Source: Nitrospirota bacterium (GTDB lineage: Bacteria; Nitrospirota; UBA9217). From it: a stretch of DNA of 64,000 nucleotides. The notes beneath the pieces were generated by a model. The model searched no databases. It was given only the letters and a program-made list of their open reading frames with translations, and had not been told where the DNA came from. Numbering within the stretch: the first letter of the stretch is position 1; every line of letters starts with the position of its first letter. This document shows, one piece after another, positions 39,550 through 56,923 of the stretch. The stretch covers positions 1,152,001 to 1,216,000 of the forward strand of contig OY760142.1 in the NCBI GenBank assembly GCA_963663225.1, read 5' to 3'. The translations under genes and the position numbers were made by a program.

Positions 39550-40143
39550 TCAACCTCCCTGTCCTTTTTTCAGCTCCAGAATTACCAATTTTGCGATAGA
39601 TTTAAGGGTATCAAACACTCCCGTGCCTTCAGTTGCTACCGCCTCAAAATCGGGAACTCCGCGCTGATTGAGTGCCATCTTCATTTCACCCAGCGGCACG
39701 ATGTTCGGTAAATCCCGTTTATTGTATTGAATCGTAAATGGCACTTTGTTTAAATCATACCCCTGATCTGCAAGGTTCACCCGCAGGTTTTCTATGCTTT
39801 CTATGTTGGCTTCCATGCGCTCAACCTGGGAATCCGCCACAAAAACAACACCGTCTACACCCTTTAAAATGAGCTTGCGGCTGGCATCATAAAACACCTG
39901 ACCGGGCACGGTGTAAAGATGAAACCTTGTTTTAAAACCCCGTATTTCACCCAGCGCAAGCGGCAAAAAATCGAAAAATAAAGTCCGTTCTGTTTCGGTT
40001 GCAAGGGATATCATCTTGCCCTTGCTGTCAGGGTTGGTTTTTTTATAGATCCATTGCAAATTGGTTGTCTTCCCGCACAAACCGGGACCATAAAAGACTA
40101 TTTTGCAGTTAATTTCTCTCGAGGAATAATTGATAAAGGACAT
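39550..40143 (-). CDS. mglA: Small Ras-like GTPase MglA
   Basis: GPGLCGKTTNL, RTLFFDF, TVPGQ, NKRD. Confidence 0.96.
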   Translation of the reverse strand: MSFINYSSREINCKIVFYGPGLCGKTTNLQWIYKKTNPDSKGKMISLATETERTLFFDFLPLALGEIRGFKTRFHLYTVPGQVFYDASRKLILKGVDGVVFVADSQVERMEANIESIENLRVNLADQGYDLNKVPFTIQYNKRDLPNIVPLGEMKMALNQRGVPDFEAVATEGTGVFDTLKSIAKLVILELKKGQGG

Positions 40144-40193
40144 GGACCGAAGTTCCTCTCCTTAAGCGTTCAGAAAACTGTGCGGTTGGACGA

Positions 40194-40688
40194 CTACCCA
40201 AAAAGTTTATCAATATCTTCATCAGTTATCTCGGCAAAGGGAGATTCTACACCCTTATCTGCTCCTTTTTCTGATTCTACTTTTTGAAGAAGATGGCCAA
40301 ATATACTGCCGAGCGATTCAGTGGTCTTCTTCACTCGAAGCCGGACAAGCCCGAGTGATGAGCGCTGGTCGAAAATAACCACCAGGATGACGCGCTGGCC
40401 GATGATGGAAATGTGAATGTTATCGCGCTGGCCTTCATGGAAAAGAATCGAAAATTCTTTTTCTCCCAGCAGTTTCGCCATGCCGCCGGTGGCTGCGATA
40501 TTCCCGGCCGTCAGTGATGCAAGAGACGTTGTATCCAGGTTGTCGGTCTCGCCGGTAGCTGCAATGAGCTGGCCGTTCTTATCGACAAGAAAGACAACTT
40601 TAGCGTTCGCTTGCTGAAGAAGACGCTGAAGTTCCGCGTCTATTTGCTTAAATTCTTCTTCGTACATTACCAAATCGGAGCCCAGCAT
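40194..40688 (-). CDS. mglB: Roadblock-domain protein MglB
   Basis: LVDKNGQ, SLASLTAGN, LGLVRLR, EITDEDIDKLF. Confidence 0.95.
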   Translation of the reverse strand: MLGSDLVMYEEEFKQIDAELQRLLQQANAKVVFLVDKNGQLIAATGETDNLDTTSLASLTAGNIAATGGMAKLLGEKEFSILFHEGQRDNIHISIIGQRVILVVIFDQRSSLGLVRLRVKKTTESLGSIFGHLLQKVESEKGADKGVESPFAEITDEDIDKLFG

Positions 40689-41880: not shown

Positions 41881-43071
41881 TTAGTTTCTCACCGTTATGT
41901 AGTCTTTTACGAGTTTAACCTTGCCGGTTTTTGCCACTTCAACCAGTTCATCAAGCACCTGGTCAGCATCATGGGGCATATAATCCCTACCGCCGAGCCC
42001 GTAAATCTTGTTGAAGAGCACGGGGCCTTGACGATGCGGCTGAACAGCCGAAGCAATTTCCATAAAGGTTGGGCCGTAACCGCCATAGGAATCAGCGCGA
42101 TCCAAAACGCAAACCGCCTTAGCATTCTTCAGAGCTTCACCCACTTCTTCGTAAGGGAATGGTCTGAATACGCGAATTTTCATAAGCCCGGCCTTCACGC
42201 CTTTTTCTCTGTATTTGTCGACCTGGTCCTTGGTCGTGCCTGCTGCCGATCCGACGGCAACGATAACCACTTCAGCATCTTCAAGACGATAGCTTTCAAA
42301 CACATCATATTTTCTGCCGGAAATCTTGGCAAAATCAGCAAACACGTCTTTCATGACCTTTTTTGCCTTCATCATGGCTTCCTGCTCAGCGCGTTTATGC
42401 TCAATGTAGTAGTCCTGCAGCACAAGGGCGCCATAGCTTCTGGGATGCTCGACGTCAAGCATCGGCTCCATGCTCTTGTACTCACCCACGAATTTTTTCA
42501 CGACATCATCGGTAAGATACTGCATGGTCATAATGGAATGGCTGGTAATGAAGCCGTCCAGGCCGACCATGATCGGAAGCCGCACTTCTTTATTTTCACC
42601 CATCACAAATGCCATGACGGTGTTGTCATACGCTTCCTGGGCATTCTCTGAATAGAGCTGAATCCATCCGCAATCGCGTGCGCCCATGCCGTCAGAATGG
42701 TCACCGTGAATATTGATGGGACCGGAAAGGGCACGGTTTACGACTGTCAGGAGAATCGGTAGCCTGAAGCCTGATGCGATGTGAAGCATTTCCCACATCA
42801 GGGCCAGACCCTGGGAGCTCGTTGCCGTAGCAACACGGCCGCCTGCTGCTGCTGCACCAATGCAGGCGCTCATGGCGCTGTGTTCGCTCTCCGCGAGGAC
42901 GACTTCAGTGTTCACCTTTCCGTCGGATACAAATTTTGTATACTGCTGCATGATTTCCGTTGACGGAGTGATCGGATATGCTGCCATGACGTCGGGGTTC
43001 AACTGGCGGAGCGCCTCCGCGACGGCAGTGTTGCCTGTAACCGCGACTGTCTTAGTTGATGTTACGGCCAT
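41881..43071 (-). CDS. porA: Pyruvate/2-oxoacid:ferredoxin oxidoreductase alpha subunit
   Basis: AYPITP, ESEHSAMS, TSSQGL, FRPFP. Confidence 0.92.
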   Translation of the reverse strand: MAVTSTKTVAVTGNTAVAEALRQLNPDVMAAYPITPSTEIMQQYTKFVSDGKVNTEVVLAESEHSAMSACIGAAAAGGRVATATSSQGLALMWEMLHIASGFRLPILLTVVNRALSGPINIHGDHSDGMGARDCGWIQLYSENAQEAYDNTVMAFVMGENKEVRLPIMVGLDGFITSHSIMTMQYLTDDVVKKFVGEYKSMEPMLDVEHPRSYGALVLQDYYIEHKRAEQEAMMKAKKVMKDVFADFAKISGRKYDVFESYRLEDAEVVIVAVGSAAGTTKDQVDKYREKGVKAGLMKIRVFRPFPYEEVGEALKNAKAVCVLDRADSYGGYGPTFMEIASAVQPHRQGPVLFNKIYGLGGRDYMPHDADQVLDELVEVAKTGKVKLVKDYITVRN

Positions 43072-43072
43072 G

Positions 43073-43366
43073 TTATTTTCCCTCCTCTTCCATGACGATT
43101 GCTTTGTTGCCTTTTTTCCCGGGGCACTCCAGGGCGCATACGCCGCAGCCCTTGCAGTAATTGTAGTTGATGCCGGTCATCTTTTCGTTTTCAACGTTGA
43201 TTGAAAGATCCGGGCAGTACACCCAGCAAAACAGGCACTGAATGCAGTTTTCCTGGATCCAGCGCGGTTTCAGTGTACGCCAGGAACCTGTTTCATATTG
43301 CTCGGAGTTTCCTGCATCCTTGATAACTCCACCCAATGGTAGTTCTTTCCAGTTCATCTGTTTCAT
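43073..43366 (-). CDS. porD: Oxidoreductase delta subunit (2x[4Fe-4S])
   Basis: TGSWR..KP, CIQCLFCWVYCP, CKGCGVCALECP. Confidence 0.92.
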   Translation of the reverse strand: MKQMNWKELPLGGVIKDAGNSEQYETGSWRTLKPRWIQENCIQCLFCWVYCPDLSINVENEKMTGINYNYCKGCGVCALECPGKKGNKAIVMEEEGK

Positions 43367-43938
43367 CCCTGCTTTACCTCCTCAAAACCGCGCTTCGCTG
43401 CGGTGAGATTTGCGTCGATAACCTTCTGCGCAAACTTCTTTCCAAAGCTGCCTTTCACTTCCTCTATCAAGCTGTCAATACCCAGAAGACCCGATGCCTT
43501 GGTAAGCGCGCCGAGCATGGGTGTATTCGGCATGGGCCTGCCGATGGTCTCAACTGATATCTTCGTTGCATCAACCGTGAAAATCTTCTGGGAAGCCTTT
43601 GCTTTGAGTTTCTCCCGGACTTCCTTCGGAGTTTTGGACGTATTGACTACAAAAACAGCGTCGTCCGATGCGCCTTCGGCAACGTTAATTGCATCGAGGA
43701 GCGTTGCGTCTGCCACTGCCACCACGTTTGGGTACAATACCGGACAATGCATCCGGAGCTCACCCGAGCTGATCCGATTATACGCACGAAGCGGTGCACC
43801 TGCGCGCTCCGGGCCATATTCTGGGAATGCCTGCACGTGACGACCGCCGCTCAGACATGCGTCGGCGAACACCTTGGCTGCCGTAACCGTGCCCTGGCCG
43901 CCCCTTCCGTGCCACCTTACTTCTACCATTTCTGCCAT
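43363..43938 (-). CDS. porC: Oxidoreductase gamma subunit
   Basis: HGRGGQG, FPEYGPERAGAP, PNTPMLGA. Confidence 0.92.
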   Translation of the reverse strand: MAEMVEVRWHGRGGQGTVTAAKVFADACLSGGRHVQAFPEYGPERAGAPLRAYNRISSGELRMHCPVLYPNVVAVADATLLDAINVAEGASDDAVFVVNTSKTPKEVREKLKAKASQKIFTVDATKISVETIGRPMPNTPMLGALTKASGLLGIDSLIEEVKGSFGKKFAQKVIDANLTAAKRGFEEVKQG

Positions 43939-44063
43939 TCTGATTACCTCCTCCTCTTCGAATTAATTTAATGTAAAATAAGACAAAATCTGCTGAATAC
44001 AAGCCGGTGCCCAACCCAGCTGCTACTCCGCTGATTCTGTCAGCAAAACGTTTTTATCACGCA

Positions 44064-45146
44064 TTACATCTCCCGCCGTCCTTCAAGCGCCCGCTGTACC
44101 GTATTCTCGTCCGCATATTCAATATCTCCCCCAACCGGGAGGCCGTATGCGATCCGGCTGACGCTGATGCCGAGCGGCTTGATAAGTTTCGACAGGTACA
44201 AGGCCGTCGTTTCCCCTTTTACCGTGGGATTCGTGGCAAGAATAACTTCCTTTACGCCGTTTGTTTTCAGCCGTTCTATAAGACCGGTGATTTTAAGATC
44301 GTCAGGACCGACTCCGTCGAGAGGAGCAATAGCGCCCATAATGGCATGATAGCGTCCCCTGAATATCCCGGTTTTTTCCAGAATAAGAATATTACTCGGC
44401 TCTTCGACTACGCAAATGCGGGTGCTGTCCCGTTTTTCATCACGGCAGATACTGCAAATTTCTTCTTCCGTGATATTATTGCAAACGGAGCAATACCGGC
44501 TGTTGTTCTTCAGATCCTGAATCGCCTGCGCGATCCCGGCAGCATCATCGTACGACATGCTGAGAATGGCAAAGGAAAGCCTCTCTGCGCTTTTTCTGCC
44601 GATGCCGGGGAGCTTCATGAAGGCCTCGACCATTTTACCGAGCGCCTGGCCCGAAACTTCGGCAGCCTGTGTTCCGTGTTGCTTGTGCTCCTGCCGGCCT
44701 TTGTTTGTTGCGACGCTCTTTGTCTTAATGATCATTTTCAGATTAGTTCCCTTGCCGACTTCTGATGAAATATAAAAAAGGTCGGAGTAGTTCTTAATAT
44801 TGCACAACCCCATTCCGGCTCCAAAACCCATGTCTCTGACTTTCTGGGTCGCCGTTGACCATCCAGGCTGCATGGCAAGTTCAATATCTGGAATTCCCGG
44901 TCCTTCATCAATCGCCTCGACCACGATGCGGTCAGGAACAACACAGAGACGAATAATCCCCTTTCGAGCGTAAGAAACAATATTTATTTCAGACTCGTAG
45001 GCTACGAGAACCGCTCTTCGCACCACGTCGTGTGAAAAGCCGTGGTGCCTTAAAACCGTTTTAATATTTCTCGCTGCCTTTCCGGCATGATCAAAATTAT
45101 CGCCGACAACCGCAAATGCGTTTTCGTACAGGGGCCTGTCATTCAC
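44064..45146 (-). CDS. recR: Fusion: RsbT-like Ser/Thr kinase/anti-sigma (GHKL) domain + recombination mediator RecR
   Basis: N-half: YESEIN, DEGPGI, GFGAGMGL; C-half: LPGIGRKSAERL, C4 Zn finger, Toprim, GGDIEYAD; no stop between. Confidence 0.88.
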   Translation of the reverse strand: MNDRPLYENAFAVVGDNFDHAGKAARNIKTVLRHHGFSHDVVRRAVLVAYESEINIVSYARKGIIRLCVVPDRIVVEAIDEGPGIPDIELAMQPGWSTATQKVRDMGFGAGMGLCNIKNYSDLFYISSEVGKGTNLKMIIKTKSVATNKGRQEHKQHGTQAAEVSGQALGKMVEAFMKLPGIGRKSAERLSFAILSMSYDDAAGIAQAIQDLKNNSRYCSVCNNITEEEICSICRDEKRDSTRICVVEEPSNILILEKTGIFRGRYHAIMGAIAPLDGVGPDDLKITGLIERLKTNGVKEVILATNPTVKGETTALYLSKLIKPLGISVSRIAYGLPVGGDIEYADENTVQRALEGRREM

Positions 45147-45154
45147 GAGAGTGT

Positions 45155-45520
45155 CTATTTACCTTCCACTTTTTCTATGCAGCCGCGGAACCCTTTGCTG
45201 TAAAGCCTTCCACAAATCTCAAAAAGAATATACTTTGTACTGAGAACGGGAATGTTCAATTCCTCCGCCAACTGAAGCGACTCATAGGGAAGTTTTTTAC
45301 CCCTGCCCAGAAGAACAGCCGCAATATCGAGGACATCAGCCGTTCTCAATACCTGCGGATTTGTTAATCCGGTTATCAAAAGAGTGCCGGTCGATGCAAA
45401 CGCAAGCACATCGCTCATAAGATCTGCAACAAATGCGTTTGACACCTCGATGTGATCAAGCCGGTCTTCGCCGACGAGTACTTCCGCGTCAAGAAAATCT
45501 TTAATGTCACGGAGCTTCAC
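45155..45520 (-). CDS. DRTGG-domain protein (hydrogenase-operon associated)
   Basis: ADLMSDVLA, LLITGLTNPQ; GTG start with GGAG. Confidence 0.85.
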   Translation of the reverse strand: MKLRDIKDFLDAEVLVGEDRLDHIEVSNAFVADLMSDVLAFASTGTLLITGLTNPQVLRTADVLDIAAVLLGRGKKLPYESLQLAEELNIPVLSTKYILFEICGRLYSKGFRGCIEKVEGK

Positions 45521-45559
45521 CGCACTCTCCTGCCATACATTTCAACGATGTTTTTTCTC

Positions 45560-47356
45560 CTAGTGTCCTGATGCCTTCTTCGGCTCACATCCGCCAAGCA
45601 CGACGTCTTTATGAGGCAGCTCCGTTCCCCGTTCAGTATAATGGGTGTGAAGCAGCTCATGTGACTTGTGGCCCAATGGTTTTTTCAGGAAAACATCGTA
45701 TACTTTTTTGATAGAGGGATTTTCGTGCGACTGACGGTATTTCTGGACCGAACCGTCATCCGCGTACAAACCGCCCGCGCGGCACTGCCTGATTTCGTTG
45801 GTCGTCGGCAGAGGACCGCCGCCGCCGCCGATGCAACCGCCCGGACAGGTCATGACTTCGATAAATGCATAGGGTGATTTTCCCTCCCGCACCTGGTCCA
45901 ACAGCTTGCGGGCGTTCGCCAAACCGTGTGCGACAGCCACAGAAACCGGCCCCAACTCGCCCACAGGAAGCGTTGCCGCTTTAACGCCGTCCAGACCGCG
46001 GACGGGAGTCACATTCAAGTCTTGCAGGTTTTTCCCGGTCACCACGGCATACACGGTGCGAAGGGCGGCTTCCATAACGCCTCCGGTCGTCCCGAAAATG
46101 GTTCCTGCACCAGTGTATTCGCCCATGGGGGCATCGTAGTCTTCGTCTTTGAGATTTACGAAATCGATGCCGGCTTCCTTAATCATCCGTGCAAGTTCGC
46201 GGGTCGTGAGAACATAGTCTACGTCGCGGTATCCGCTGCTGCACATCTCAGGTCTCTTCGCCTCAAACTTTTTGGCAGTGCAGGGCATGATGGAAACGGA
46301 GACAATATTTTTCGGATCGATGCCGGCGGTTTCGGCGTAGTAGGTTTTTACCATGGCGCCGAACATCATCTGCGGAGACTTGCAGGTTGACAGGTGAGGA
46401 AGCAGATCCGGGTAAAAGTGTTCGCAGAACTTGATCCAACCCGGCGAGCAGGAGGTGATCATGGGAAGCTTCCCGCCTTCTTTGACGCGCTGCAGAAGCT
46501 CGTTCCCTTCCTCGATAATAGTAAGGTCCGCGGTAAAATTCGTATCGAACACCTTGTGGAACCCGAGTTTCCTGAGTGCGGCGATCATTTTTCCGGTCAC
46601 CAGCGAACCCGCGGGCATTCCGAATTCCTCGCCCAGCGTGACACGGACGGCCGGTGCTTCCTGAACAACAATATGCTTGGTTGGATCCTGAAGTGCTTTC
46701 CAAACTTCGTTGACATCGTCTTTTTCGTACAGCGCACCGACGGGGCATGCCATTATGCACTGTCCGCAGGCAATACAGTTTGTTTCCAGCAAGGGGAGAT
46801 CAAACGCGGGTATCACCTTGGCGTTGCTTCCTCGAAACGCTGGAGTCAACACGCTCACCGTCTGGACCTTTTCGCAAACGGCAACGCACCGGTGGCAGTT
46901 GATGCACTTTCTGGTGTCGCGTACAATGGAAGGGCTGGATTCGTCAATCGCCCCTTCTTTCGGAAACGCGGGAATATCGAACCTCACATCACGCACGCCC
47001 GTGTATTCCGCGACCTTCTGGAGTTCGCAATTGCCGTTTCTGATGCAGTAGTTGCATTCCGTCGGGTGATTGGCCAGAAGAAGCTCCACCACCATTTTGC
47101 GAGCATTGCGCACCGCTTCGGTTGTCGTTCGCACGACCATTCCTTCGGAAACGGGAAAAACACATGATGCAACATGGCCCCGCTGGCCCTGCACATCCAC
47201 CAGGCAAACACGGCAGGCGCCCGGCGTATGACCGAGTTCTTGTGACGCGCACAGGGTAGGAATCCTGATTCCTGCTTTTTTCGCAGCTTCCAGGATGGTA
47301 GTGCCCGGCTCTACCGCAACTTTGATATTGTCAATGGTTAAGTTAACTAAAGACAT
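45560..47356 (-). CDS. hydA: Group A [FeFe]-hydrogenase catalytic subunit
   Basis: TSCSPGW, MPCTAKKFE, EVMTCPGGCIGGGG; N-terminal [2Fe-2S], His-ligated and 2x[4Fe-4S] motifs. Confidence 0.96.
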   Translation of the reverse strand: MSLVNLTIDNIKVAVEPGTTILEAAKKAGIRIPTLCASQELGHTPGACRVCLVDVQGQRGHVASCVFPVSEGMVVRTTTEAVRNARKMVVELLLANHPTECNYCIRNGNCELQKVAEYTGVRDVRFDIPAFPKEGAIDESSPSIVRDTRKCINCHRCVAVCEKVQTVSVLTPAFRGSNAKVIPAFDLPLLETNCIACGQCIMACPVGALYEKDDVNEVWKALQDPTKHIVVQEAPAVRVTLGEEFGMPAGSLVTGKMIAALRKLGFHKVFDTNFTADLTIIEEGNELLQRVKEGGKLPMITSCSPGWIKFCEHFYPDLLPHLSTCKSPQMMFGAMVKTYYAETAGIDPKNIVSVSIMPCTAKKFEAKRPEMCSSGYRDVDYVLTTRELARMIKEAGIDFVNLKDEDYDAPMGEYTGAGTIFGTTGGVMEAALRTVYAVVTGKNLQDLNVTPVRGLDGVKAATLPVGELGPVSVAVAHGLANARKLLDQVREGKSPYAFIEVMTCPGGCIGGGGGPLPTTNEIRQCRAGGLYADDGSVQKYRQSHENPSIKKVYDVFLKKPLGHKSHELLHTHYTERGTELPHKDVVLGGCEPKKASGH

Positions 47357-47432
47357 ACATTCCTCCGTTTTTAGGCGGACGCTGTTTTAAAGCAGCGTCC
47401 GTCGCAATTCAGTAGTGGTAAAAACTAACTCC

Positions 47433-50400
47433 CTAAGCTCCTCCATCGCACCGCATGCAACGGCTTGCTTCCAGGATGGCGACCATCTTTTTATAGCCAA
47501 TCTCAACTTCCTTGAAGTTGTTCTTCCTGTCTGCAACATGCAGTTCGGGCATCTTCGCCTGGGGGGTCTCTTCGGATTCTTCATCAATGACGAACGGAAT
47601 GTCGATCTTTTCCTCCGCCGGCTCCACATATGCCGGTTCACCATTGATTTTCCTGATGTGGCTGTCCATATCGGATGCCGCCTGATGGCCCGCAGCAATG
47701 GCTCCGATAACGGTGTCAGGACCGGTGACCATGTCGCCACCCGTAAAGTATTTCGAATTTGTCGTCTGAGACTTGCATCCTGCGGCCAAACTGCAGGTCG
47801 ACCACTTGCTGACGCTGATTCCGCTGTCCTTCGGAATAAAGGACAGATCCGGCATCTGACCGATGGCCGAGACAATGGTGTCCACGCTTAAGGTGAATTC
47901 TGACCCCGCAATAGCGGTCGGTCTCTTTCTTCCGCTTCTGTCGAAGTCGCTCAGTTTCATGCGTTCACAGACAATACCGTTGACAGCGCCACCCTGCTCA
48001 ACGATCTTGAGCGGGGCAACCAGGTATTCAATCTTAATGCCTTCTTCCTCCGCTGCATGGATTTCCTCCTCAGCAGCCGGCATGTCCTTCCTCTCGCGGC
48101 GGTACAGGATGGTAACATCCGCGCCGAGACGCTTCGCAACGCGGGCGGCATCAATGGCGGAATTTCCGCCGCCGACTACGGCAACCCGGGTACCGAGCTG
48201 TTTTTTGCCCGTCAACCAGGCCTCTTCATTCGTGCAAAAGTCTCTCAAGAATTCCACGCTGCCGAAAACGCCTTTCAGGTTCTCGCCCGGAATGCCCATG
48301 GGCTGGCTCTTGTGCGCGCCGGCAGCCAGATATACATAGTCGAAGTCTTTGTTTACCTGTTCGAAGGAAATTTCTCTGCCTACGCGGGTGTTGCATTTAA
48401 TATCGACGCCCAGCGCCTTTACGTTGTCGTTGATTTCTGCGGCAAGTATGTTTCGGGGAAGCCGGTACGAAGGGATAGCCCAGCGAAGCATACCGCCTGC
48501 TTCCGGCAGTTCTTCGAATATGGTCACTTTGTACCCGCGGAGAGCCAAATCACGCGCAGCAGTAAGGCCGGCGGGGCCCGCTCCGATAACAGCGATTTTT
48601 TCTTTTCTCGTTACGGCAACCGGTGCTGTCTGGGGCCGCGGCGCATTGTCGGTGATGAACCTCTTGAGGAACTTGATGGCAAGCGGCTCATCAAGATTGG
48701 ACCGGCGGCACTTTGACTGGCACTTATGATCGCAAACGCGGCCGCAAACCGAGGGAAGCGGATTTGTTTTGATCATGACCTTATACGCATCGCTGAAGCG
48801 CTCTGCGCGGATAAGTGCAATATATGCCGGAATGTCCATTTCAACCGGGCACGTATGCTGGCACGGCGATTTGAAGAGCGGCGAGCAGACAACGGCTTTG
48901 CACCTTTTGTCCCGGATATGCGCTTCGTATTCATCTCTGAAATACCGGATCGTGCTCAGAACCGGATTCGGGGCGGTCTGGCCAAGACCGCACAGAGACG
49001 AACTTTTGATAACAGCGGCCATTTCCTCGAGAAGCTCTATATCGCCTTCCCTGCCCTTGCCCTGCGTGATGTTCGTCAGGATTTCAAGCATTCTCTTGGT
49101 TCCTTCACGGCAGGGAGTGCACTTTCCGCACGACTCCTCCTGACAGAAGTCCATAAAGAACCGGGCAATATCCACAGCGCACTTGTCTTCGTTCAGTACG
49201 ATCAGCCCGCCGGAACCCATAATGGCTCCCAGTTCCATTACTCGCTCAAAGTCAACCGGCGTATTAAGATATTCAATCGGAATCATGCCGCCGGAGGGGC
49301 CGCCCAGTTGTGCGGCCTTAAATTTTTTCCCGTTGGGAATGCCACCGCCGATATCGTAGACAATCTGGCCGAGCGTTGTTCCCATCGGTACTTCGACAAG
49401 GCCGACGTTGTTCACGTCTCCGGTGAGGGCGAATACCTTGGTTCCCTTGCTCTTCTCTGTTCCGATAGCATTATACCAGGAGGCCCCCTTGAGAATGATC
49501 TGGCCCACACTGGCAAACGTCTCAACATTGTTCAAGACAGACGGCTTGCCCCACAGTCCCGAAACGGCCGGGAAAGGCGGACGCGGACGCGGCATACCGC
49601 GCTTGCCTTCAATGGATGTCATCAGGGCAGTCTCTTCACCGCAGACGAACGCTCCGGCGCCCTGGTAAATTTCTATCTCAAGATCAAATCCCGTGCCCAG
49701 AATGTTCTTTCCCAAAAGTCCATACTCTTTTGCCTGGTTGAGAGCAACCTGCATCCGGTGGATGGCAAGAGGATACTCTGCACGGCAGTAGATATATCCC
49801 TGGTGGGCGCCGATTGCCTTGGCCGCAATAACCATGCCTTCAATGACGGCATGGGGATCGCCTTCGAGCACGCTTCGGTCCATAAACGCACCGGGATCGC
49901 CTTCGTCGGCGTTGCAAAGAATATATTTTACATCCCCGGGGGTCTGCGCACAGAACTTCCACTTAAGGCCGGTGGGAAAACCGCCGCCGCCTCTGCCGCG
50001 CAGGCCCGAATCGAGAACTTCTTTTACAATCTGCTCCGGCGTCATTTCCGTCAGGGCCTTCGCCATTCCGGCGTATGCGTCCCTGGCAATGGCTTCGTCA
50101 ATGTTTTCCGGATCAATTTTGCCTCTGTTTTTCAGCACAATCAGCTTCTGGAGGGCAAAAAACGGAATTTCTTCCATTGTGGGGATGCGCTTTTCCGTCA
50201 CCGGTTCTTTATAGAGAAGCCGCTCCAGCACCCGTCCCTTTACCAGATGCTCTTCAACCAGCTCCGGCACGTCTTCCGGTTTTATCATCATGTAAATAAC
50301 ACCTTCCGGATAGACCACCATGATCGGCCCCTGGGCGCAAAAACCATTGCACCCGGTTTCTACAATCTTTACCTGGTCTGAAAAACCGCGTTTATCAATC

Positions 50401-50492
50401 TCTTCCTGCAATACCTGCTTTGTTTTGATGGACCCGGATGCATGGCAACCGGTTCCTCCACAGATTAAAAAGTGCGAACGAAATGCTTTCAT
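47433..50492 (-). CDS. HydB/NuoF-like diaphorase fused to GltD/NfnB-like FAD-NAD(P)H oxidoreductase
   Basis: GLRGRGGGGFP, NADEGDPGAFMDR, GEETAL, ESCGKC..C; then CGRVC, GAGPAG, GGGNSA.D, YRR. Confidence 0.9.
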   Translation of the reverse strand: MKAFRSHFLICGGTGCHASGSIKTKQVLQEEIDKRGFSDQVKIVETGCNGFCAQGPIMVVYPEGVIYMMIKPEDVPELVEEHLVKGRVLERLLYKEPVTEKRIPTMEEIPFFALQKLIVLKNRGKIDPENIDEAIARDAYAGMAKALTEMTPEQIVKEVLDSGLRGRGGGGFPTGLKWKFCAQTPGDVKYILCNADEGDPGAFMDRSVLEGDPHAVIEGMVIAAKAIGAHQGYIYCRAEYPLAIHRMQVALNQAKEYGLLGKNILGTGFDLEIEIYQGAGAFVCGEETALMTSIEGKRGMPRPRPPFPAVSGLWGKPSVLNNVETFASVGQIILKGASWYNAIGTEKSKGTKVFALTGDVNNVGLVEVPMGTTLGQIVYDIGGGIPNGKKFKAAQLGGPSGGMIPIEYLNTPVDFERVMELGAIMGSGGLIVLNEDKCAVDIARFFMDFCQEESCGKCTPCREGTKRMLEILTNITQGKGREGDIELLEEMAAVIKSSSLCGLGQTAPNPVLSTIRYFRDEYEAHIRDKRCKAVVCSPLFKSPCQHTCPVEMDIPAYIALIRAERFSDAYKVMIKTNPLPSVCGRVCDHKCQSKCRRSNLDEPLAIKFLKRFITDNAPRPQTAPVAVTRKEKIAVIGAGPAGLTAARDLALRGYKVTIFEELPEAGGMLRWAIPSYRLPRNILAAEINDNVKALGVDIKCNTRVGREISFEQVNKDFDYVYLAAGAHKSQPMGIPGENLKGVFGSVEFLRDFCTNEEAWLTGKKQLGTRVAVVGGGNSAIDAARVAKRLGADVTILYRRERKDMPAAEEEIHAAEEEGIKIEYLVAPLKIVEQGGAVNGIVCERMKLSDFDRSGRKRPTAIAGSEFTLSVDTIVSAIGQMPDLSFIPKDSGISVSKWSTCSLAAGCKSQTTNSKYFTGGDMVTGPDTVIGAIAAGHQAASDMDSHIRKINGEPAYVEPAEEKIDIPFVIDEESEETPQAKMPELHVADRKNNFKEVEIGYKKMVAILEASRCMRCDGGA

Positions 50493-50576
50493 GTGAATAC
50501 CTTCCTCCTTCACGTAATTACCTTTGGATTCTGCAAGAGAGCACGCTCCGCACCCTTGCCGATAATCGCCATGGTC

Positions 50577-50945
50577 CTAGCCCCGTGCAATGGCAAACGT
50601 GGACTGCACCTCTCCCTGAAGAACATGCCGTTTGAACACCTGGCGCATCTTGTTTGCGTCCATATGTCCGTAGACAATCGGCTCTTTTCCGAGAATCTCC
50701 ACCGTAACCATAGGCTCTCTGCTGCACATTCCAGCGCAACCGGATGTCGTCACCATCACATCCGTCGTCTTTGCTTCCGCAATTTCGCTCATCAATGAAT
50801 CCATTACTGCGCGCGCACCTGCGGAAATACCACACGTCCCCATATGCACGGTAACCTTTGCTCTCTGGCCGCCTTCCCGGAGCGCGGTTTCTGTGAGGAC
50901 TCTTTCCTTGATTTTTTTCAAGTCTGCTATTGAAATTTTCGGCAT
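50577..50945 (-). CDS. Thioredoxin-like [2Fe-2S] subunit (HndB/HydD-like)
   Basis: VHMGTCGISAGA, SGCAGMCSREP. Confidence 0.88.
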   Translation of the reverse strand: MPKISIADLKKIKERVLTETALREGGQRAKVTVHMGTCGISAGARAVMDSLMSEIAEAKTTDVMVTTSGCAGMCSREPMVTVEILGKEPIVYGHMDANKMRQVFKRHVLQGEVQSTFAIARG

Positions 50946-50968
50946 GGCAGTTCCCCTTATTTTTGCGG

Positions 50969-51475
50969 TTAATTATACTTGTTCAGCACTTCTTTAACTT
51001 TTGCTGGTTTCAAGCGTCCGTGAACATTGTCATTAACAAAAATCACCGGCCCCAACCCGCAGGCGCCGATGCAACGAACCGTCTCCAACGTAAAACGCCT
51101 GTCTTCGGTCGTCTCACCCTCTTCTACCTTCAGTTCCTGCTTCAGGTTCTCATACAGGGCCTTGCCACCGCGGACGTAGCAGGCCGTGCCCAGACATACC
51201 CGCACGGTATACTTGCCGCGCGGGCTCATGGTAAAGAACGAATAAAACGTCACCACGCCGTACACCTGGCTCAGGGGGAGATTAAGACCGTTTGCAATTA
51301 TTTTCAGAATAGGCATCGGCAGAAATTCCAGAACCATCTGTGTTTCTTCTAAAACGGGTATCAATGCGCCTGGCTTGTTTTTATACTTTGCTATGATTTC
51401 ATCAACCTTTTTCAGCTGTGCGGGTGTAAATTCCTTCGATATATCAATATCAACATTCTTTACTTTGGCCTTCAT
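50969..51475 (-). CDS. NuoE-like [2Fe-2S] subunit (HydC/HndA-like)
   Basis: VVTFYSFF, CLGTAC, CIGACGLGP. Confidence 0.92.
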   Translation of the reverse strand: MKAKVKNVDIDISKEFTPAQLKKVDEIIAKYKNKPGALIPVLEETQMVLEFLPMPILKIIANGLNLPLSQVYGVVTFYSFFTMSPRGKYTVRVCLGTACYVRGGKALYENLKQELKVEEGETTEDRRFTLETVRCIGACGLGPVIFVNDNVHGRLKPAKVKEVLNKYN

Positions 51476-51512
51476 GTACCATTTCCTCCTTAAAAGAATA
51501 CCGATTCATGTT

Positions 51513-52061
51513 TCATGCTTCGGCTTCTATTTCCTTCAGGCCCGCTTGTATATGCGCCTTGATGAAGTGCAAAACCTCTGCATGATTAATAGGGACGTTT
51601 TCAATTTCTTTTTTGATGACTCTCGTGTCTAAAAGATACTCCCGGTCATTGTGCTGATGCCGGTAAATAAATTCAACAGTGCTGTTTCCCGCTATCAGCG
51701 AGACCAGGGTGCTTGCTATATCACCAAGCGGTTGACGGTCAAGATGACTCAGTTTAAATTCTGCAGCTACCCGTGTTCCTCTGCCCTTTTGTGACTCGAG
51801 AACGACTCTTCCGCTCGCTTTTTCCGCTGCCTGTAAAAACATCGGAAGCCCAAGCCCGACATGGCGGACTGTTTTGGTTGTGAAAAACGGGTCCGTGGCT
51901 TTTTTAAGAACTGCCTCTGTCATGCCAGAGCCGTCATCTTGTATTTCCAGGGACAATGTATCTCTTGAGGTGTCTTCTCTCAAGGTTATAAAAACTGTTT
52001 TGGCACCGGCCCGGGTGGAGTTTTCCGCAATGTCCAAAATATGCAGGGAAAGCTCAAGCAC
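51513..52061 (-). CDS. GHKL (HATPase_c) ATPase of hydrogenase operons
   Basis: ELSLHILDIAENS, DDGSGM, DPFFTT, GLGL, HLDRQPLGD. Confidence 0.88.
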   Translation of the reverse strand: MLELSLHILDIAENSTRAGAKTVFITLREDTSRDTLSLEIQDDGSGMTEAVLKKATDPFFTTKTVRHVGLGLPMFLQAAEKASGRVVLESQKGRGTRVAAEFKLSHLDRQPLGDIASTLVSLIAGNSTVEFIYRHQHNDREYLLDTRVIKKEIENVPINHAEVLHFIKAHIQAGLKEIEAEA

Positions 52062-52064
52062 GGA

Positions 52065-52802
52065 TCACTCCTGGACGTATCGTCCGCCTTGGCGCTTAAA
52101 AGCCATCCTTACTTCTTCAAATGTTCCTTGCTCGAGAAACATGGTTGTTATGCCTTGGCCGATGTCCTGAATAAAATGTGCGTCTGAAGACTCAATAAAA
52201 GGAAACCGGCTGAGTTCTGGGTATTGTTGTCGGGCGTCTCTTAGCCCTGTCTGGTGTGTTATTTCAAGTGCATCCAAGGGCATGTCCGGATCTACGAAAC
52301 CAAGCTGGCTGATGACACTAAAAGTTTCCCGATCGATATGTGAGGCGATTGCAAGCCCGTCCAAGCGGTGAATATGATTAATAATTTCAAGCAGCGACAA
52401 TGTAGTCGCCCCGAGAAGAAATTTGTCATTAAAGCCTTCGACCTCGTCAGCCTCGTTGACGATGGCCTGGCAGCCGAATACCTCCTCTCGATTCGTACCG
52501 GAAAGATTACCATAGACAATGTCCTGGATGTTCTTCAGGCGGTTTACGGTATCAAAAAGAGCCAGCAAGTGTACTTCTTCTCTGCTGGTTATTTCCATCC
52601 CAGGAAGCACGATCAGGGGTTTTCCTGAAGCGGACTTTAATACATATGGGACATTCTCTGAAGCATTATGATCGCAAACGGCGATAATATCCAGCCTTTC
52701 AGCCAAGGCTTTAGCAACCACCGCGCGGGGGTACATATCCAATTCTGCGCAGGGTGAAAGGCATGTGTGTATATGAAAATCGCAACGGAAAGCCCTGAGC
52801 AT
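52065..52802 (-). CDS. PHP-domain phosphoesterase
   Basis: DFHIHTCLSPC, CDHN, GMEI, SHIDR, SSDAH. Confidence 0.9.
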   Translation of the reverse strand: MLRAFRCDFHIHTCLSPCAELDMYPRAVVAKALAERLDIIAVCDHNASENVPYVLKSASGKPLIVLPGMEITSREEVHLLALFDTVNRLKNIQDIVYGNLSGTNREEVFGCQAIVNEADEVEGFNDKFLLGATTLSLLEIINHIHRLDGLAIASHIDRETFSVISQLGFVDPDMPLDALEITHQTGLRDARQQYPELSRFPFIESSDAHFIQDIGQGITTMFLEQGTFEEVRMAFKRQGGRYVQE

Positions 52803-52869
52803 ATTTATTTATGTCCGTGCGAAGAAATACGGAAAATGCTTTCTTCCGTTTACGCCATACTTGATGTTC

Positions 52870-53214
52870 TTAGGTACCACTTTTCTTCATCAAGTCGTAT
52901 ATTCTGCCGGTGATCTCAAACGCGGAGAGATCAGATATCATAATTGGAATATCTTCTTGTCTTCCCTTCTCAAGGGTATCCTTTGCCGGCTCACAACCCT
53001 GCACAAGAATAATACCAGCATGGTCTTTCAGGCTGGCAACTGCAACAATATTTTGGTGAACCTGTCTGGTAATCCAGATGTCTCCCTCACGGCTGTTTGC
53101 CATTACATCACTCAGCAAATCGCCGGTATATCCGCCCAGCACCTTTGTTTGCATCTTGTCTTCACCGGACACTATTCTAAGTCCCAAGGTCTTGACGATA
53201 GACTGCAATTCCAC
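52870..53214 (-). CDS. DRTGG-domain protein
   Basis: GYTGDLLSDVMA, WITRQ.H.N.VAVA. Confidence 0.85.
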   Translation of the reverse strand: MELQSIVKTLGLRIVSGEDKMQTKVLGGYTGDLLSDVMANSREGDIWITRQVHQNIVAVASLKDHAGIILVQGCEPAKDTLEKGRQEDIPIMISDLSAFEITGRIYDLMKKSGT

Positions 53215-53316
53215 GTCTTTAGGCTCCTTTGTGGGAAGACAAAATAACGAGAAACCTGATTTCCGCTCAGCAGCTCGGTGCTGCCGGAGACAGCTTATCA
53301 GCTGCCCGCCTTTCTC

Positions 53317-53637
53317 TTACAGCAGCCCCGGCGGAAGACCCATGCCTGCTGTAAGATTCGCCATCTCTTCTTTCATAAGCTCCTGTGATTTACGAAGGGC
53401 TTCATTTACAGCGGCGACAACCAGGTCCTGGAGCATTTCTGTATCATTCGGATCAACCACCGAAGGGTCTATCTTAATTGAAATTATTTCCTGTCGCCCG
53501 TTGGCAACCACAGTAACCATCCCGCCGCCAGCCGACGTCTCAACGGTTTTACCCGCTGCCTCTTCCTGGATTTTTTTTACGCGCTCCTGCATCTGCTGAG
53601 CCTGTTTCATTAAGTTTCCAATAATATTTTTTGACAT
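53317..53637 (-). CDS. ybaB: YbaB/EbfC nucleoid-associated protein
   Basis: LMKQAQQMQ, AGGGMV.V, EMLQDLVVAAVNEA. Confidence 0.95.
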   Translation of the reverse strand: MSKNIIGNLMKQAQQMQERVKKIQEEAAGKTVETSAGGGMVTVVANGRQEIISIKIDPSVVDPNDTEMLQDLVVAAVNEALRKSQELMKEEMANLTAGMGLPPGLL

Positions 53638-53706
53638 TGTAAGCCGTTCTGCTATATTTTAGATTATTAGAATATTCTAAATCGTAACTATAGAACAAAT
53701 CGTGTT

Positions 53707-53735
53707 ATTATAAAACAAGTCCCTTTATTTTGCAA
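53707..53735 (-). promoter_or_regulatory. sigma70 promoter upstream of ybaB
   Basis: TTGCAA-17 bp-TATAAT. Confidence 0.65.
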
Positions 53736-53781
53736 GTTAATTTGCGTTTATAATGGTTACTACTTTTCATTTTGCTATGTG

Positions 53782-53797
53782 AGCAAGGATTGTGCCA
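53782..53797 (-). promoter_or_regulatory. sigma54 (-24/-12) promoter upstream of the ybaB-hydrogenase operon
   Basis: TGGCAC-AATCC-TTGCT, matches TGGCAC-N5-TTGCW. Confidence 0.75.
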
Positions 53798-54052
53798 GAC
53801 TTTTTTCAAAACCAATTCCTCTTGTATTACATACTATTTGTGTTATTATTCAGCTGCAAGCAATATAACAAAACTTATGATTCTCAATCACAAATATGGA
53901 TTTTGCTTGATTTTCATCACGATTGAAGCTGTATAACTAAGATTATGATCTATAATAGAGCTTATTAGAAATTGCGGTTTGGCTGGATAATAGAGGGTGA
54001 GGCGATCACGGTGAGAAAGAAATCATTGTCCGGAGCAGGATTTGGCCGCGTT

Positions 54053-55684
54053 TTACAGGTCCGGTTCATCCGATTGGCTCTGCTCAACTACTTTTCCTTG
54101 CGTAAACACCTGCAATACATCCTGCACAGCTGAATCGAGAACCTCTTTTTTTGCGGTGGTTTTCGTCTTTATTTCAGGATTCGCACTGGGGGTGACCGCT
54201 TGGTTTATGACTTGAATTTTTTTATTAAGAACTTCTTCCGCTACCTGCTCAATATAGCGCCGGTTCTCAGGTTTCTCTGCTTGATCGAGTTGGAAGCTTC
54301 CGGGAATACCGATCACTAATTTCGTATCGGAAATTTCAACCAGTTTGCTCTGTGCAAGAAGCGAAGCAAGATTTGGTTTCTTTTCTTTTATAATACGAAC
54401 AATTTTATTCCATACATCGTCTTGTGCAGAAGCAGTTTCTGCAGATGGCTCAGGAGAGGTGTTCTGATTTTTTTGAAAAGTCGTGTGGGGTTTTTGCCCA
54501 TAGCTGTGGTTTGGCATAGTTGCCGGACGGTCGCAAGCAGCAATATGCATTTCCAGCTCTTTTATGTGCGCAAGCACTTCTGCGAGCGGTTTGAGTTGCG
54601 TGAGATTGCACGCCTTGACGAGGCCGATTTCTAGCGTAAACCGCTGATGCGGCGACCAGCGCATATCCTCAAGTGTTTTGGAAAGGCTGTCAAAAAGCAC
54701 CAGCAGACGGTCTGTTTCTACGCCTGCTCCCTGTTGTTTTATTGCTTCAATATCCACAGATGGAAGCTCAACAATCCGGCCGGGCTCTTTCGCAATCTTT
54801 ACCACCAATATATTCCGAAGATGCTCAACCAGCCCCGACAGAAGTAAACGCAGGTCCTGGCCTTGTTCCAATAACTCATCCACCAGCTTTAAAAGTCCGG
54901 CCGCATCCTGCCTAAAAAGCCCGGCCGTAATTTTTTGGAGGGTTATCTGGGCAATGGAGCCGAGCGTGGTCTGAATATCCGCATCCTGTATTTCCAGGCC
55001 GCTGAAAGACACCGTCTGGTCCAAAAGGCTCTGCGCATCACGCATGCTTCCTTCGGCAGCCCGTGCGATCAGAGAGAGCCCCTGGTCGCTTATCGTAATA
55101 TGTTCGGCATCTGCGACCTGACGGAGCCTGCCAATAAGTTCGTTTAAGGATATCCGCTTGAAGCTATACCGTTGGCAGCGTGAATGTATCGTAGCAGGTA
55201 TCTTCTGGGGCTCGGTTGTAGCAAAGATGAAAATTACGTGCGGTGGCGGTTCTTCAAGCGTCTTGAGTAACGCATTGAATGCTTCATTCGTAAGCATATG
55301 CACTTCGTCGATCACATATACTTTGTATCTGCCGCCCACCGGTGCATACTTCACGGCCTCACGCAGCTCTCTAATGTGTTCAATACCGCGATTTGAAGCA
55401 CCGTCTATCTCTATTACGTCAACGGAATTGCCGGCCGTGGTCTCAAGGCAGGAGTCGCACTTTCCGCACGGAATCGGCGTCGGTCCTTCTGCACAGTTGA
55501 GTGCTTTTGCAAGGATCCGCGCCGTAGTGGTCTTCCCCACTCCCCGAGGGCCTGAAAAAAGAAATGCGTGAGCCAATCGTTTTGAGGCAATTGCATTCTG
55601 GAGTGTGCGGGTAATATGTTCCTGACCTACTACGTCGTCAAATTTCTGTGGCCGCCATTTTCGTGCGAGAACTTGGTAACTCAT
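54053..55684 (-). CDS. dnaX: DNA polymerase III subunit gamma/tau
   Basis: LARKWRPQ, GPRGVGKTT, DEVHML, SRC. Confidence 0.97.
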   Translation of the reverse strand: MSYQVLARKWRPQKFDDVVGQEHITRTLQNAIASKRLAHAFLFSGPRGVGKTTTARILAKALNCAEGPTPIPCGKCDSCLETTAGNSVDVIEIDGASNRGIEHIRELREAVKYAPVGGRYKVYVIDEVHMLTNEAFNALLKTLEEPPPHVIFIFATTEPQKIPATIHSRCQRYSFKRISLNELIGRLRQVADAEHITISDQGLSLIARAAEGSMRDAQSLLDQTVSFSGLEIQDADIQTTLGSIAQITLQKITAGLFRQDAAGLLKLVDELLEQGQDLRLLLSGLVEHLRNILVVKIAKEPGRIVELPSVDIEAIKQQGAGVETDRLLVLFDSLSKTLEDMRWSPHQRFTLEIGLVKACNLTQLKPLAEVLAHIKELEMHIAACDRPATMPNHSYGQKPHTTFQKNQNTSPEPSAETASAQDDVWNKIVRIIKEKKPNLASLLAQSKLVEISDTKLVIGIPGSFQLDQAEKPENRRYIEQVAEEVLNKKIQVINQAVTPSANPEIKTKTTAKKEVLDSAVQDVLQVFTQGKVVEQSQSDEPDL

Positions 55685-55867
55685 GTACCCCTCAATAGTG
55701 TGTCTGTTTAAAAATAGCTGTCGAAAATGAGCGCGGAACAACTATGTTCATGGGACGCAGGCAGAGGTTCCATCAGACGGGTAGCGAGAAGAAATTTATT
55801 GCATAGTCTTCTTCTGCGTCCAGAGGTTTTTGGTCCACGGGAAGTAGCAGAATACAAAAGCTCATAA

Positions 55868-55964
55868 ACCCGGGCTTCCCTGCGGCGCACTTGGAACCCG
55901 TTTACCGCTGCTTCCTTCCGGACCTGACGGGATTCACGGGACCATGGTCGCGCAGGACCCGGGC
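55868..55964 (-). ncRNA. ffs: Signal recognition particle RNA (small, 4.5S type)
   Basis: TCAGGTCCGGAAGGAAGCAGC domain IV in a long hairpin upstream of dnaX. Confidence 0.93.
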
Positions 55965-56061
55965 TCATGAGCGCTCTTAAAGCAATTCAAAAACCGGCAT
56001 CGGAAAGAGCCGCACCAGAGAGCACGTACGTGCTGATCTTCGATTCCGTATAAAAAATATA

Positions 56062-56149
56062 TGGCGGAGAGGGTGGGATTTGAACCCACGTTAGGTTTCC
56101 CTAAACACGCTTTCCAAGCGTGCGCCTTCAGCCGCTCGGCCACCTCTCC
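56062..56149 (-). tRNA. tRNA-Ser(GGA)
   Basis: CACGC-TTGGAAA-GCGTG arm, long variable arm, GCCA end. Confidence 0.95.
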
Positions 56150-56196
56150 GTACAACTCACTGCTTATGCGGTACTTCTCGTTATGATGCTCTATTT

Positions 56197-56287
56197 TGGC
56201 GGAGAGGGAGGGATTTGAACCCCCGGTGGAGTTACCCCCACAACAGATTTCGAGTCTGCCGCCTTCAGCCAGCTCGGCCACCTCTCC
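56197..56287 (-). tRNA. tRNA-Ser(CGA)
   Basis: GCAGA-CTCGAAA-TCTGT arm, long variable arm, GCCA end. Confidence 0.95.
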
Positions 56288-56302
56288 ATGCGTTTTGGCT
56301 TG

Positions 56303-56779
56303 TCAAACACTCAGCAGTTTTGGTTTTTCCCTTAACGACTTGAAAAACTGCTGAAGCACATCCCGGCATTCTTCTTCTAAAACGCCTGCGGTTATACTAT
56401 ATGTGTGATTCAGCATGCCGTCGCGGCCAACATCATAGACCGACCCGAGGGCACCCGCTTTTTCATCACGGCACCCGTAGACGACCCTGCTGATCCGCGC
56501 GAGCACCATGGCGCCCGCACACATAAGACACGGCTCCAGCGTCACATAAAGCGTGGCATCGGAAAGCCGCCATTTGCCGAGCCGAGCCGATGCTTCGCGG
56601 AGTGCGATGAGTTCCGCGTGTGCCGTCGGATCCTGCCAGGCTTCTCGCATATTGTGGGCAGCGGCAACAACCTGTCCGTTGACGACCACCGCTGCACCAA
56701 TGGGCATCTCAGCCGCTCGTGCCGCTTTCCGAGCCTCGGCCAATGCCAAACTCATAAATTCTTTATCGGTTCTGGGCAT
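56303..56779 (-). CDS. tadA: tRNA adenosine(34) deaminase
   Basis: DPTAHAE, TLEPCLMC, FFKSLR. Confidence 0.95.
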   Translation of the reverse strand: MPRTDKEFMSLALAEARKAARAAEMPIGAAVVVNGQVVAAAHNMREAWQDPTAHAELIALREASARLGKWRLSDATLYVTLEPCLMCAGAMVLARISRVVYGCRDEKAGALGSVYDVGRDGMLNHTYSITAGVLEEECRDVLQQFFKSLREKPKLLSV

Positions 56780-56787
56780 TGTAAAAA

Positions 56788-56864
56788 TGGCGCGCCCAAG
56801 AGGATTCGAACCTCTGACCTACGGATTCGTAGTCCGTTGCTCTATCCAACTGAGCTATGGGCGC
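56788..56864 (-). tRNA. tRNA-Arg(ACG)
   Basis: ACGGA-CTACGAA-TCCGT arm, GCCA end, 77 nt. Confidence 0.96.
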
Positions 56865-56923
56865 TTGGCAATACAGGCTGATATTTTACGCTCTCAAATT
56901 ACCCTGCGTTAACGTCCTGCCGG

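Follow-up and report, generated by a model that had tools for sequence, protein, structure and literature searches.

The window analysed here is a stretch of 64,000 nucleotides (nt) from a Nitrospirota bacterium (GTDB lineage UBA9217; assembly GCA_963663225.1, contig OY760142.1, positions 1,152,001 to 1,216,000 of the forward strand), and all positions below are counted from its first letter. On its minus strand, a nine-gene [FeFe]-hydrogenase cluster lies between ybaB and recR, and the last gene of the cluster, encoding a kinase module of the GHKL fold, reads into recR in one frame, giving the kinase-RecR fusion described in this study (Table 1). A preliminary description of this DNA had proposed a single open reading frame (ORF) of 360 amino acids (aa) composed of a GHKL kinase, a polar linker and RecR, and the frame together with the Pfam and NCBIfam matches bore this out, with a linker of 23 residues. 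The fusion puts two known modules together in an architecture that is new and stable and whose origin is well resolved, and it is not evidence for a new pathway.

The C-terminal half of the fused protein matched the Pfam families RecR_HhH (residues 171-211, E = 2.8e-12), RecR_ZnF (residues 217-236, E = 6.5e-9), Toprim_4 (residues 243-333, E = 8.8e-23), and RecR_C (residues 335-358, E = 5.8e-12), and it scored 253.6 bits with the NCBIfam recR equivalog TIGR00615 (cut-off 162.55), positions 5-196 of the 196-position model aligning with residues 167-358. The zinc-finger cysteines C219, C222, C231, and C234 were invariant among 49 RecR sequences. The best solved relative was the Thermoanaerobacter tengcongensis RecR (3vdp, E = 3.4e-69), whose Met1 aligns with A162, so that the RecR module is complete, helix alpha1 included, and not merely near-complete as first described. 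Compared with known RecR (TIGR00615; 3vdp; 1vdd of Deinococcus radiodurans), the module has the full domain set, C-terminal motif included, and porGDAB lies downstream as in relatives, whereas the fused RecR lacks a start codon of its own and has a 143-residue kinase and a tether at its N-terminus. The usual RecR is a stand-alone protein of ~200 aa encoded directly after dnaX-ybaB, whereas the fused recR lies ~8.6 kb from these genes; the mismatch is a feature of the architecture, neither catalytic nor fold-defining.

The N-terminal half matched HATPase_c_2 (PF13581; residues 19-139, E = 2.7e-8, 34.3 bits against a cut-off of 27.4), and a profile built from it matched SpoIIAB (1til, E = 8e-9). 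Its AlphaFold model, with a predicted local distance difference test (pLDDT) of ~80-94, resembled SpoIIAB and RsbW at target template-modelling (TM) scores of 0.77-0.88 in Foldseek. Moreover, the motifs YESEINIV (from residue 50), DEGPG (80), and GFGAGMG (107) lie in blocks invariant over 9 fused and 34 stand-alone homologues, which we take to be the ATP-binding motifs. The module is thus like the anti-sigma serine kinases SpoIIAB, RsbW, and UsfX (1til, 1l0o, 6m36, and 8ih8) in GHKL fold, length (~145 aa) and ATP-binding motifs. The earlier label "RsbT-like" holds for fold and size and not beyond, given that the SpoIIAB equivalog (TIGR01925) gave 43.2 bits, far under its cut-off of 135, and that the neighbours are DRTGG, PHP, ATPase, and hydrogenase-subunit genes instead of STAS-domain or sigma-factor genes (STAS domains being looked for in the neighbourhood). 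As to the linker, the first ~10 residues are junction-specific and the remainder is a leftover of the N-terminal extension of RecR in this family. A complex prediction with the RecR and kinase modules as separate chains scored 0.01 against a mark of 0.32, which speaks neither for nor against binding. The AlphaFold models were too poor to be used for RecR, with most of the RecR half below pLDDT 50 in the full-length model and a mean of 59.5 in a model starting at M138.

The kinase-RecR fusion is a real gene. The source genome (G000) is a closed contig of 3,255,001 bases with one recR match in the whole genome, and the second recR proposed as a check is absent. A second assembly of the genus (G004) has the same frame with an identical linker sequence (contig C67) and shares the whole neighbourhood at 97-99% nt identity. 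In the protein collection, ten distinct full-length fusions were found, all of 360 aa, originating from NCBI, ENA, JGI, and Logan and forming three clusters at 90% identity, between which identity is ~81%. In addition, an independent metagenome contig (L040, 1828 nt, 74% nt identity) runs from the end of DRTGG_b through the fused frame into porG, and Logan contigs from three metagenomes of three studies span 44179-45211 or more with 0 gaps, the sole reported indel being at 45557 in the HydA/DRTGG_b spacer; no stop or indel, either of which had been named as a sign against the fusion, was seen in the linker across these contigs. An overlooked stop or frameshift, or two loci joined chimerically, might be suspected in view of the kinase gene being broken by contig ends in two related draft genomes, but the closed genome, the identical linker in the second assembly, the frame kept at 74% identity, the gap-free contigs and the four data sources leave such an artefact with next to no probability, and it can be excluded for practical purposes. 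Both drafts break at kinase codon ~22 (G004 at the end of C1 and the start of C67, G002 at the end of C334). The 55-nt overlap between the two G004 contigs is identical, and identity to the source genome is 95% over 521 nt upstream of the break and 99.4% over 1235 nt downstream, which may reflect a strain mixture or a recombination boundary.

Comparison of the source genome with L040 by the Nei-Gojobori method yielded proportions of nonsynonymous (pN) and synonymous (pS) differences of 0.106 and 0.746 for the kinase, 0.073 and 0.789 for RecR, and 0.396 and 0.839 for the linker, which retains 32% aa identity and has no indel. Purifying selection is therefore strong on both modules, synonymous sites being saturated, and the linker evolves fast and stays open. 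Over residues 160-171 the codons show several synonymous changes but the protein sequence is conserved, indicating that these residues are translated.

The origin of the fusion was resolved by comparison of gene orders. In the same-genus genomes G003 and G001, the order is dnaX-ybaB-recR-porG-porD-porA, whereas in the source genome ~8.6 kb with nine genes, in the order DRTGG_a, PHP, GHKL ATPase, NuoE, ferredoxin-like, NuoF-GltD, HydA, DRTGG_b and kinase, lie between ybaB and the position of recR. A stand-alone recR frame was present in 20 of the 24 other genomes of the family, G004 has the fused one, and no recR match was found in G002, G006, and G022 (completeness 83, 98, and 63%, respectively); the question whether close relatives all have separate genes thus has a mixed answer, with some separate, though not all, and some fused. 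A search for the closest stand-alone kinases returned 80 loci, of which the best 23 and two others were examined in detail. The order DRTGG_b-kinase-DRTGG_a was observed in all 25 detailed loci, followed, where the contig reaches, by PHP, ATPase, NuoE, ferredoxin-like, and NuoF-GltD (with the exception of L054, which has no PHP match of at least half length), and HydA comes next in 10 of the 25. Of the whole set of 80 loci, 66 have the kinase flanked by a DRTGG gene on either side, and in none was recR found within 10 kb of the kinase. All five genes of the DRTGG/kinase/DRTGG/PHP/GHKL-ATPase cassette known beside the NuoE/NuoF of bifurcating-type [FeFe]-hydrogenases are present in the window, adjoining NuoE-Fdx-NuoF/GltD-HydA; unlike in the usual cassette, the order is circularly permuted and the kinase stop codon is lost. 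Judging from gene order, the cluster is a circular permutation of the usual one, opened in the 24-50-nt spacer between kinase and DRTGG_a, and this permuted order is common to G000, G004, and G002. The kinase is joined to recR because the permuted insertion moved DRTGG_b and the kinase to the 3' end of the cluster.

The two junctions are in line with these gene orders. At the left junction, DRTGG_a retains its own ribosome-binding site, and at the right junction the kinase is full length and its stop codon is gone, the stand-alone orthologues being 146-150 aa long with a stop 3-6 residues past the KMIIKT motif. DNA homology to the same-genus recR begins at ~44669 (codon 160). In 11 of 18 relatives, a GTG preceded by a purine-rich run occurs at one aligned position ~22 codons upstream of this homology start, and it is the first possible start in L009 and L011; the fusion has neither the aligned GTG nor its purine-rich run. 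These comparisons show that the ancestor had recR after dnaX-ybaB and before porGDAB, with its own start codon and ribosome-binding site, and that a nine-gene cluster, comprising the five-gene cassette together with the NuoE, ferredoxin-like, NuoF-GltD, and HydA genes, was inserted between ybaB and recR. The insert was opened, as if from a circularised or tandemly duplicated copy, in the short stretch that separates the kinase from the next DRTGG gene. The kinase thereby became the last gene of the insert and lost its stop codon, now reading into recR. From recR, the start and the ribosome-binding site disappeared, together with roughly 20 codons at the beginning of a non-conserved N-terminal extension. 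The permutation itself could have come about through a circular copy that integrated, or through tandem duplication and later deletions. The earlier notion of a rearrangement scar was consequently right as to a rearrangement, namely a permuted cluster between ybaB and recR, and wrong as to a decaying scar, with the fusion occurring in several lineages and both halves conserved.

Table 1. The fused gene, its modules and in-frame ATG codons, and the surrounding genes in the window
Feature	Position	Strand	Remarks
Fused gene, kinase + linker + RecR in one frame	44064..45146	-	GTG start, 360 aa, 39.4 kDa
Kinase module, residues 1-143	44718..45146	-	GHKL ATP-binding fold, SpoIIAB/RsbW-type (Pfam, alignment, model)
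Linker, residues 144-166 (23 residues)	44649..44717	-	Polar, fast-evolving; pLDDT <50
RecR module, residues 167-360 + stop	44064..44648	-	Helix-hairpin-helix (HhH), Cys4 zinc finger, Toprim, RecR_C
In-frame ATG, M138	44733..44735	-	Upstream of linker, in last strand of kinase; product 223 aa, 24.3 kDa
In-frame ATG, M172	44631..44633	-	Aligns with 3vdp residue 11, inside helix alpha1
In-frame ATG, M177	44618	-	Aligns with Thermoanaerobacter RecR residue 16
porG, first of porG-porD-porA-porB	43363..43938	-	POR 2.5e-43; after recR here and in unfused relatives
DRTGG_b protein, 121 aa	45155..45520	-	Pfam DRTGG 1.1e-8; usually first gene of the cluster, here second-last
[FeFe]-hydrogenase HydA, 598 aa	45560..47356	-	Fe_hyd_lg_C 5.4e-103
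NuoF-like flavoprotein fused to GltD-like pyridine-nucleotide oxidoreductase, 1026 aa as listed	47433..50513	-	Complex1_51K 7.9e-47, Pyr_redox_2 1.1e-29
Small thioredoxin-like [2Fe-2S] (ferredoxin-like) protein, 122 aa	50577..50945	-	Weak Pfam match 6.6e-5; cluster position conserved
NuoE/HydC-like [2Fe-2S] subunit, 168 aa	50969..51475	-	2Fe-2S_thioredx 1.1e-51
Second GHKL ATPase of the regulatory cassette, 182 aa	51513..52061	-	HATPase_c 3.7e-14
PHP-type phosphoesterase, 245 aa	52065..52802	-	PHP_C 22.3 bits (cut-off 21.3); PHP 22.3 bits, under cut-off 26.4
DRTGG_a protein, 114 aa	52870..53214	-	DRTGG 6.6e-5, 23.1 bits, just under cut-off 25.2; usually third, here first
Left junction, ybaB/insert spacer	53215..53316	-	Likeness to the spacer of relative G003 limited to first ~10 nt past the ybaB stop
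ybaB/ebfC	53317..53637	-	Directly upstream of recR in relatives
dnaX (start codon not settled)	54053..55741	-	Matches dnaX of relatives
Signal recognition particle (SRP) RNA + five tRNA genes	55865-55964, 56065-56287, 56791-56864, 57525-57758	-	Upstream of dnaX

The order ffs-dnaX-ybaB-recR is the classical neighbourhood of recR, and the insertion into it therefore stands out. Among the inserted genes, DRTGG_a and PHP give weak Pfam matches, yet their identity to the cassette genes of the 25 loci is 54-73%; for DRTGG_a, compared with the gene that follows the kinase in these loci, it is 54-70%. The NuoF-GltD fusion shows 75-82% identity across related clusters, which suggests a hydrogenase with an extra pyridine-nucleotide site. 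Downstream of porB, a small Ras-like GTPase gene, with a GxxGxGKT P-loop in its translation, and an adjoining gene of 164 aa (39550-40688, minus strand) resemble an MglA/MglB pair by eye. Rfam detected nothing in the region 43000-58000 of the window but the tRNAs, the SRP RNA, and sub-threshold matches. An RNA element in the ybaB-recR spacer was considered and rejected, as Rfam gave 0 matches in the loci of five relatives; the conserved spacer of the relatives is better read as a ribosome-binding site and a coding N-terminal extension. As to an internal promoter or terminator, two promoter-like sites were found against 2.0 expected, and one terminator-like site against 1.6 expected, numbers that argue neither for nor against one.

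Searches at the levels of family, order, and class covered the same 64 genomes of the class, and in these the fusion-type kinase was confined to G000 and G004 (99% and 98% identity); G002 contains HydA, DRTGG_b, and kinase codons 1-22, followed by the contig end. In 47 other genomes of the class, a paralogue of the kinase was detected at 43-52% identity, forming in four loci (L023, L024, L026, and L027) the C-terminal half of a 311-317-aa protein in a nuoABCD-linked cassette, with an N-terminal half that is CBS-domain-like by eye. This family-typical CBS-kinase cassette was not found in the G000 genome, where the foreign-type cluster appears to have replaced it. The closest homologues of the cluster, at 54-82% protein identity, come from metagenome-assembled genomes labelled Syntrophales, Syntrophaceae or Smithella. 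Horizontal acquisition is an economical explanation because these homologues lie outside the class and the distribution within it is restricted, and the cluster was probably acquired from another class of anaerobes. Base composition was also tried as a sign of foreign DNA and dropped, with a GC content of 0.47-0.56 in the insert and 0.42-0.55 in the flanks. In a maximum-likelihood tree of 123 RecR cores, the 11 junction-bearing RecR (six full fusions and five starting in the kinase tail) lie on one side of a branch (ultrafast bootstrap (UFBoot) 84, Shimodaira-Hasegawa-like approximate likelihood ratio test (SH-aLRT) 91) that was recovered in 82% of 200 bootstrap trees. They are nested with 11 free RecR in a well-supported set (99/98), and this grouping fits a single origin. 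Path lengths of the RecR core from the shared node were ~0.10-0.27 in this junction clade compared with ~0.01-0.10 in the 11 free sisters.

Long forms of RecR are not unusual, with 2358 homologues of at least 348 aa in a collection of 5.8 billion proteins, the best 120 of which were examined. The many records of Rothia RecR (~375 aa) owe their length to a C-terminal acidic tail, in contrast to the N-terminal kinase found here, and the other N-terminal fusions among these 120 (YbaB-RecR, DnaX-RecR, and one HisKA-kinase-RecR) are single records joining neighbouring or chimeric genes, leaving the present kinase-RecR form as the only one that recurs in several clusters and assemblies. In the HisKA-type record (P0150, 609 aa, one ENA record), a HisKA-HATPase sensor kinase joins RecR just before LPGIG, shortly after the glycine-rich motif of the kinase itself, so that most of helix alpha1 is lacking; the record probably stems from a chimeric assembly or from a deletion and has nothing to do with the fusion in the window. 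No published description of a kinase-RecR fusion was found in the literature searched, supplementary files excluded.

Considering that no stop codon separates the modules, ribosomes that start at the kinase GTG must make the fusion, and from the kinase core to the conserved N-terminus of RecR the frame offers no conventional start other than M138. The internal ATGs were scored by complementarity to an assumed anti-Shine-Dalgarno (SD) sequence, in comparison with 132 internal in-frame ATGs of 17 neighbouring genes and 17 true starts. The three ATGs reached -4.6 to -5.9 kcal/mol, as good values being found for 14-28% of the 132 internal ATGs and 76% of the true starts; for M172 the value was -4.6 kcal/mol (28% of the internal ATGs as good). 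This ordinary complementarity suggests that RecR has no dedicated internal start. Initiation at M172 would also strip the first 10 residues of helix alpha1, consistent with the preliminary description, which had placed the ATG at 44633 inside the first helix without an evident SD. According to PMC3510498, the functional unit of RecR is the N-N dimer formed by the N-terminal HhH domains, the 16-196 deletion mutant of Thermoanaerobacter RecR neither kept the native geometry of the N-N dimer nor bound RecO, and a His-tag at the N-terminus, present on all proteins used, was tolerated. RecR activity must thus be supplied by the fusion or by a product starting at or before M138, because starts at M172 or M177 would damage helix alpha1. 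The further claim that RecR is made only as the fusion was supported indirectly in so far as no RecR is expected from 44633 (loss of helix alpha1, conservation of residues 160-171, and the deletion results in PMC3510498), but it had not taken into account the in-frame ATG at 44735 (M138).

RecR activity could alternatively come mainly from a separate protein of ~24 kDa, produced by an internal start at M138, with the fusion as an unavoidable by-product, or by cleavage of the linker. M138 is well placed for this as the sole conventional start in that interval, its 223-aa product falls in the range of the free RecR of the family (221-252 aa, several of exactly 223), the linker is predicted to be disordered, and five short proteins, all inside the junction clade, begin in the kinase tail, four of them (P0005, P0011, P0028, and P0067) at the equivalent Met and P0072 in a degenerate-looking tail. 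Yet the complementarity at M138 is ordinary (-5.5 kcal/mol, matched by 20% of the internal ATGs and 76% of the 17 true starts), the purine-rich run encodes the invariant G-K-G of the kinase and is present in stand-alone kinases too, and the five short proteins may stem from contigs breaking inside the kinase gene, as in G002 and G004, making a separate RecR unlikely overall. The first residues of the M138 product align to the native start region without convincing similarity (MAFFT), and its agreement in length with the shortest common free RecR (223 aa) is probably a coincidence. The free RecR of the family, longer than the usual ~200 aa, has a basic and variable N-terminal extension that ends ...QGKAGAQAAEVSGKALGR before helix alpha1 (L004-L021; P0006-P0121), and a conserved stretch upstream, GGQDRTAAVKE, seems in some genomes to serve as the ribosome-binding site too.

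With regard to function, we hold with moderate confidence that the fusion is a frozen accident, a stable by-product of the rearrangement in which each module keeps its own job. The kinase half would keep working within the hydrogenase-associated cassette and the RecR half with RecO in RecA loading, without cross-talk between the two, and the fusion would be tolerated since RecR in this family already bears a floppy N-terminal extension. Selection would hold the joint frame open because it is the sole route to translating the single recR, from the kinase start and possibly also from M138. In the source genome, a RecO gene is present (144.7 bits, cut-off 48.7) and RecF was not found above its cut-off (best 28.4 bits against 172), so that the fused RecR is presumably needed in a RecOR route, and the organism may be RecOR-only. 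As for the kinase, Ser/Thr kinases and phosphatases beside putative H2-sensing hydrogenases are discussed in PMC5707799.

The fusion might instead be adaptive, the kinase tethered to RecR coupling the hydrogenase/redox cassette to repair or DNA, with RecR or RecO as the kinase substrate or with the kinase scaffolded on the RecR dimer or ring. The SpoIIAB family acts as a dimer. RecR does so as well (PMC3510498), so a kinase dimer on its N-N dimer is geometrically conceivable, and the adaptive reading could also draw on the maintenance of the fusion over a divergence with saturated synonymous sites, on the length of exactly 360 aa in ten sequences, and on the longer RecR branches of the junction clade. 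On the other hand, the join follows directly from the point at which the permuted insert was opened, the fusion occurs only in a single small clade (2-3 of the 64 genomes of the class), recR is near none of the 80 other kinase loci, the only other kinase-RecR among the best 120 of the 2358 long RecR is a singleton chimera, the linker is poorly conserved (32% identity), and, as the sole recR must be translated, the open frame is accounted for already. We accordingly regard an adaptive fusion as quite improbable, and nothing was found in support of the link between H2/redox signalling and RecFOR suggested in the preliminary description, given the small clade, the insertion geometry, and the 0 of 80 other loci near recR. 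A functional tether in these syntrophic-type anaerobes, by which the kinase is held on RecR's N-N dimer and is modulated by DNA or RecO engagement, or phosphorylates RecR or RecO, seems more doubtful still. Several points nevertheless weigh against a frozen accident of the kind proposed. The 39-kDa product and its activity are predicted from the gene, and a 16-kDa domain tethered at the N-N dimer terminus might not be neutral. The longer RecR branches could reflect adaptation to the fused state instead of drift, and the constant 360 aa could mean that the length of the tether is constrained beyond keeping the frame. Furthermore, if the five starts in the kinase tail are true, RecR may be made separately, and its production only as the fusion would be wrong. 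The putative horizontal origin, finally, is drawn from distribution and identity, base composition being without contrast.

The fusion of kinase and RecR represents a clean and datable case of multi-domain gene birth, in which the insertion of a permuted operon removed a stop and a start together. A gene of an essential pathway was captured by a foreign operon, after which selection must hold the joint frame open. It also constitutes a natural experiment on RecR, the single RecR of the cell carrying a 16-kDa domain on the terminus that forms the N-N dimer; if it is active as the fusion, the RecR N-terminus would be far more tolerant than deletion studies suggest. For annotation, it is a warning against "guilt by fusion", since a conserved fusion need not imply a functional link. 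Were the two halves functionally linked after all, energy metabolism and DNA repair would be connected in a new way, with H2/redox metabolism and recombinational gap repair united in one polypeptide. In the organism itself, the expression of a housekeeping repair gene has become tied to a hydrogenase operon, which may alter repair capacity across growth modes.

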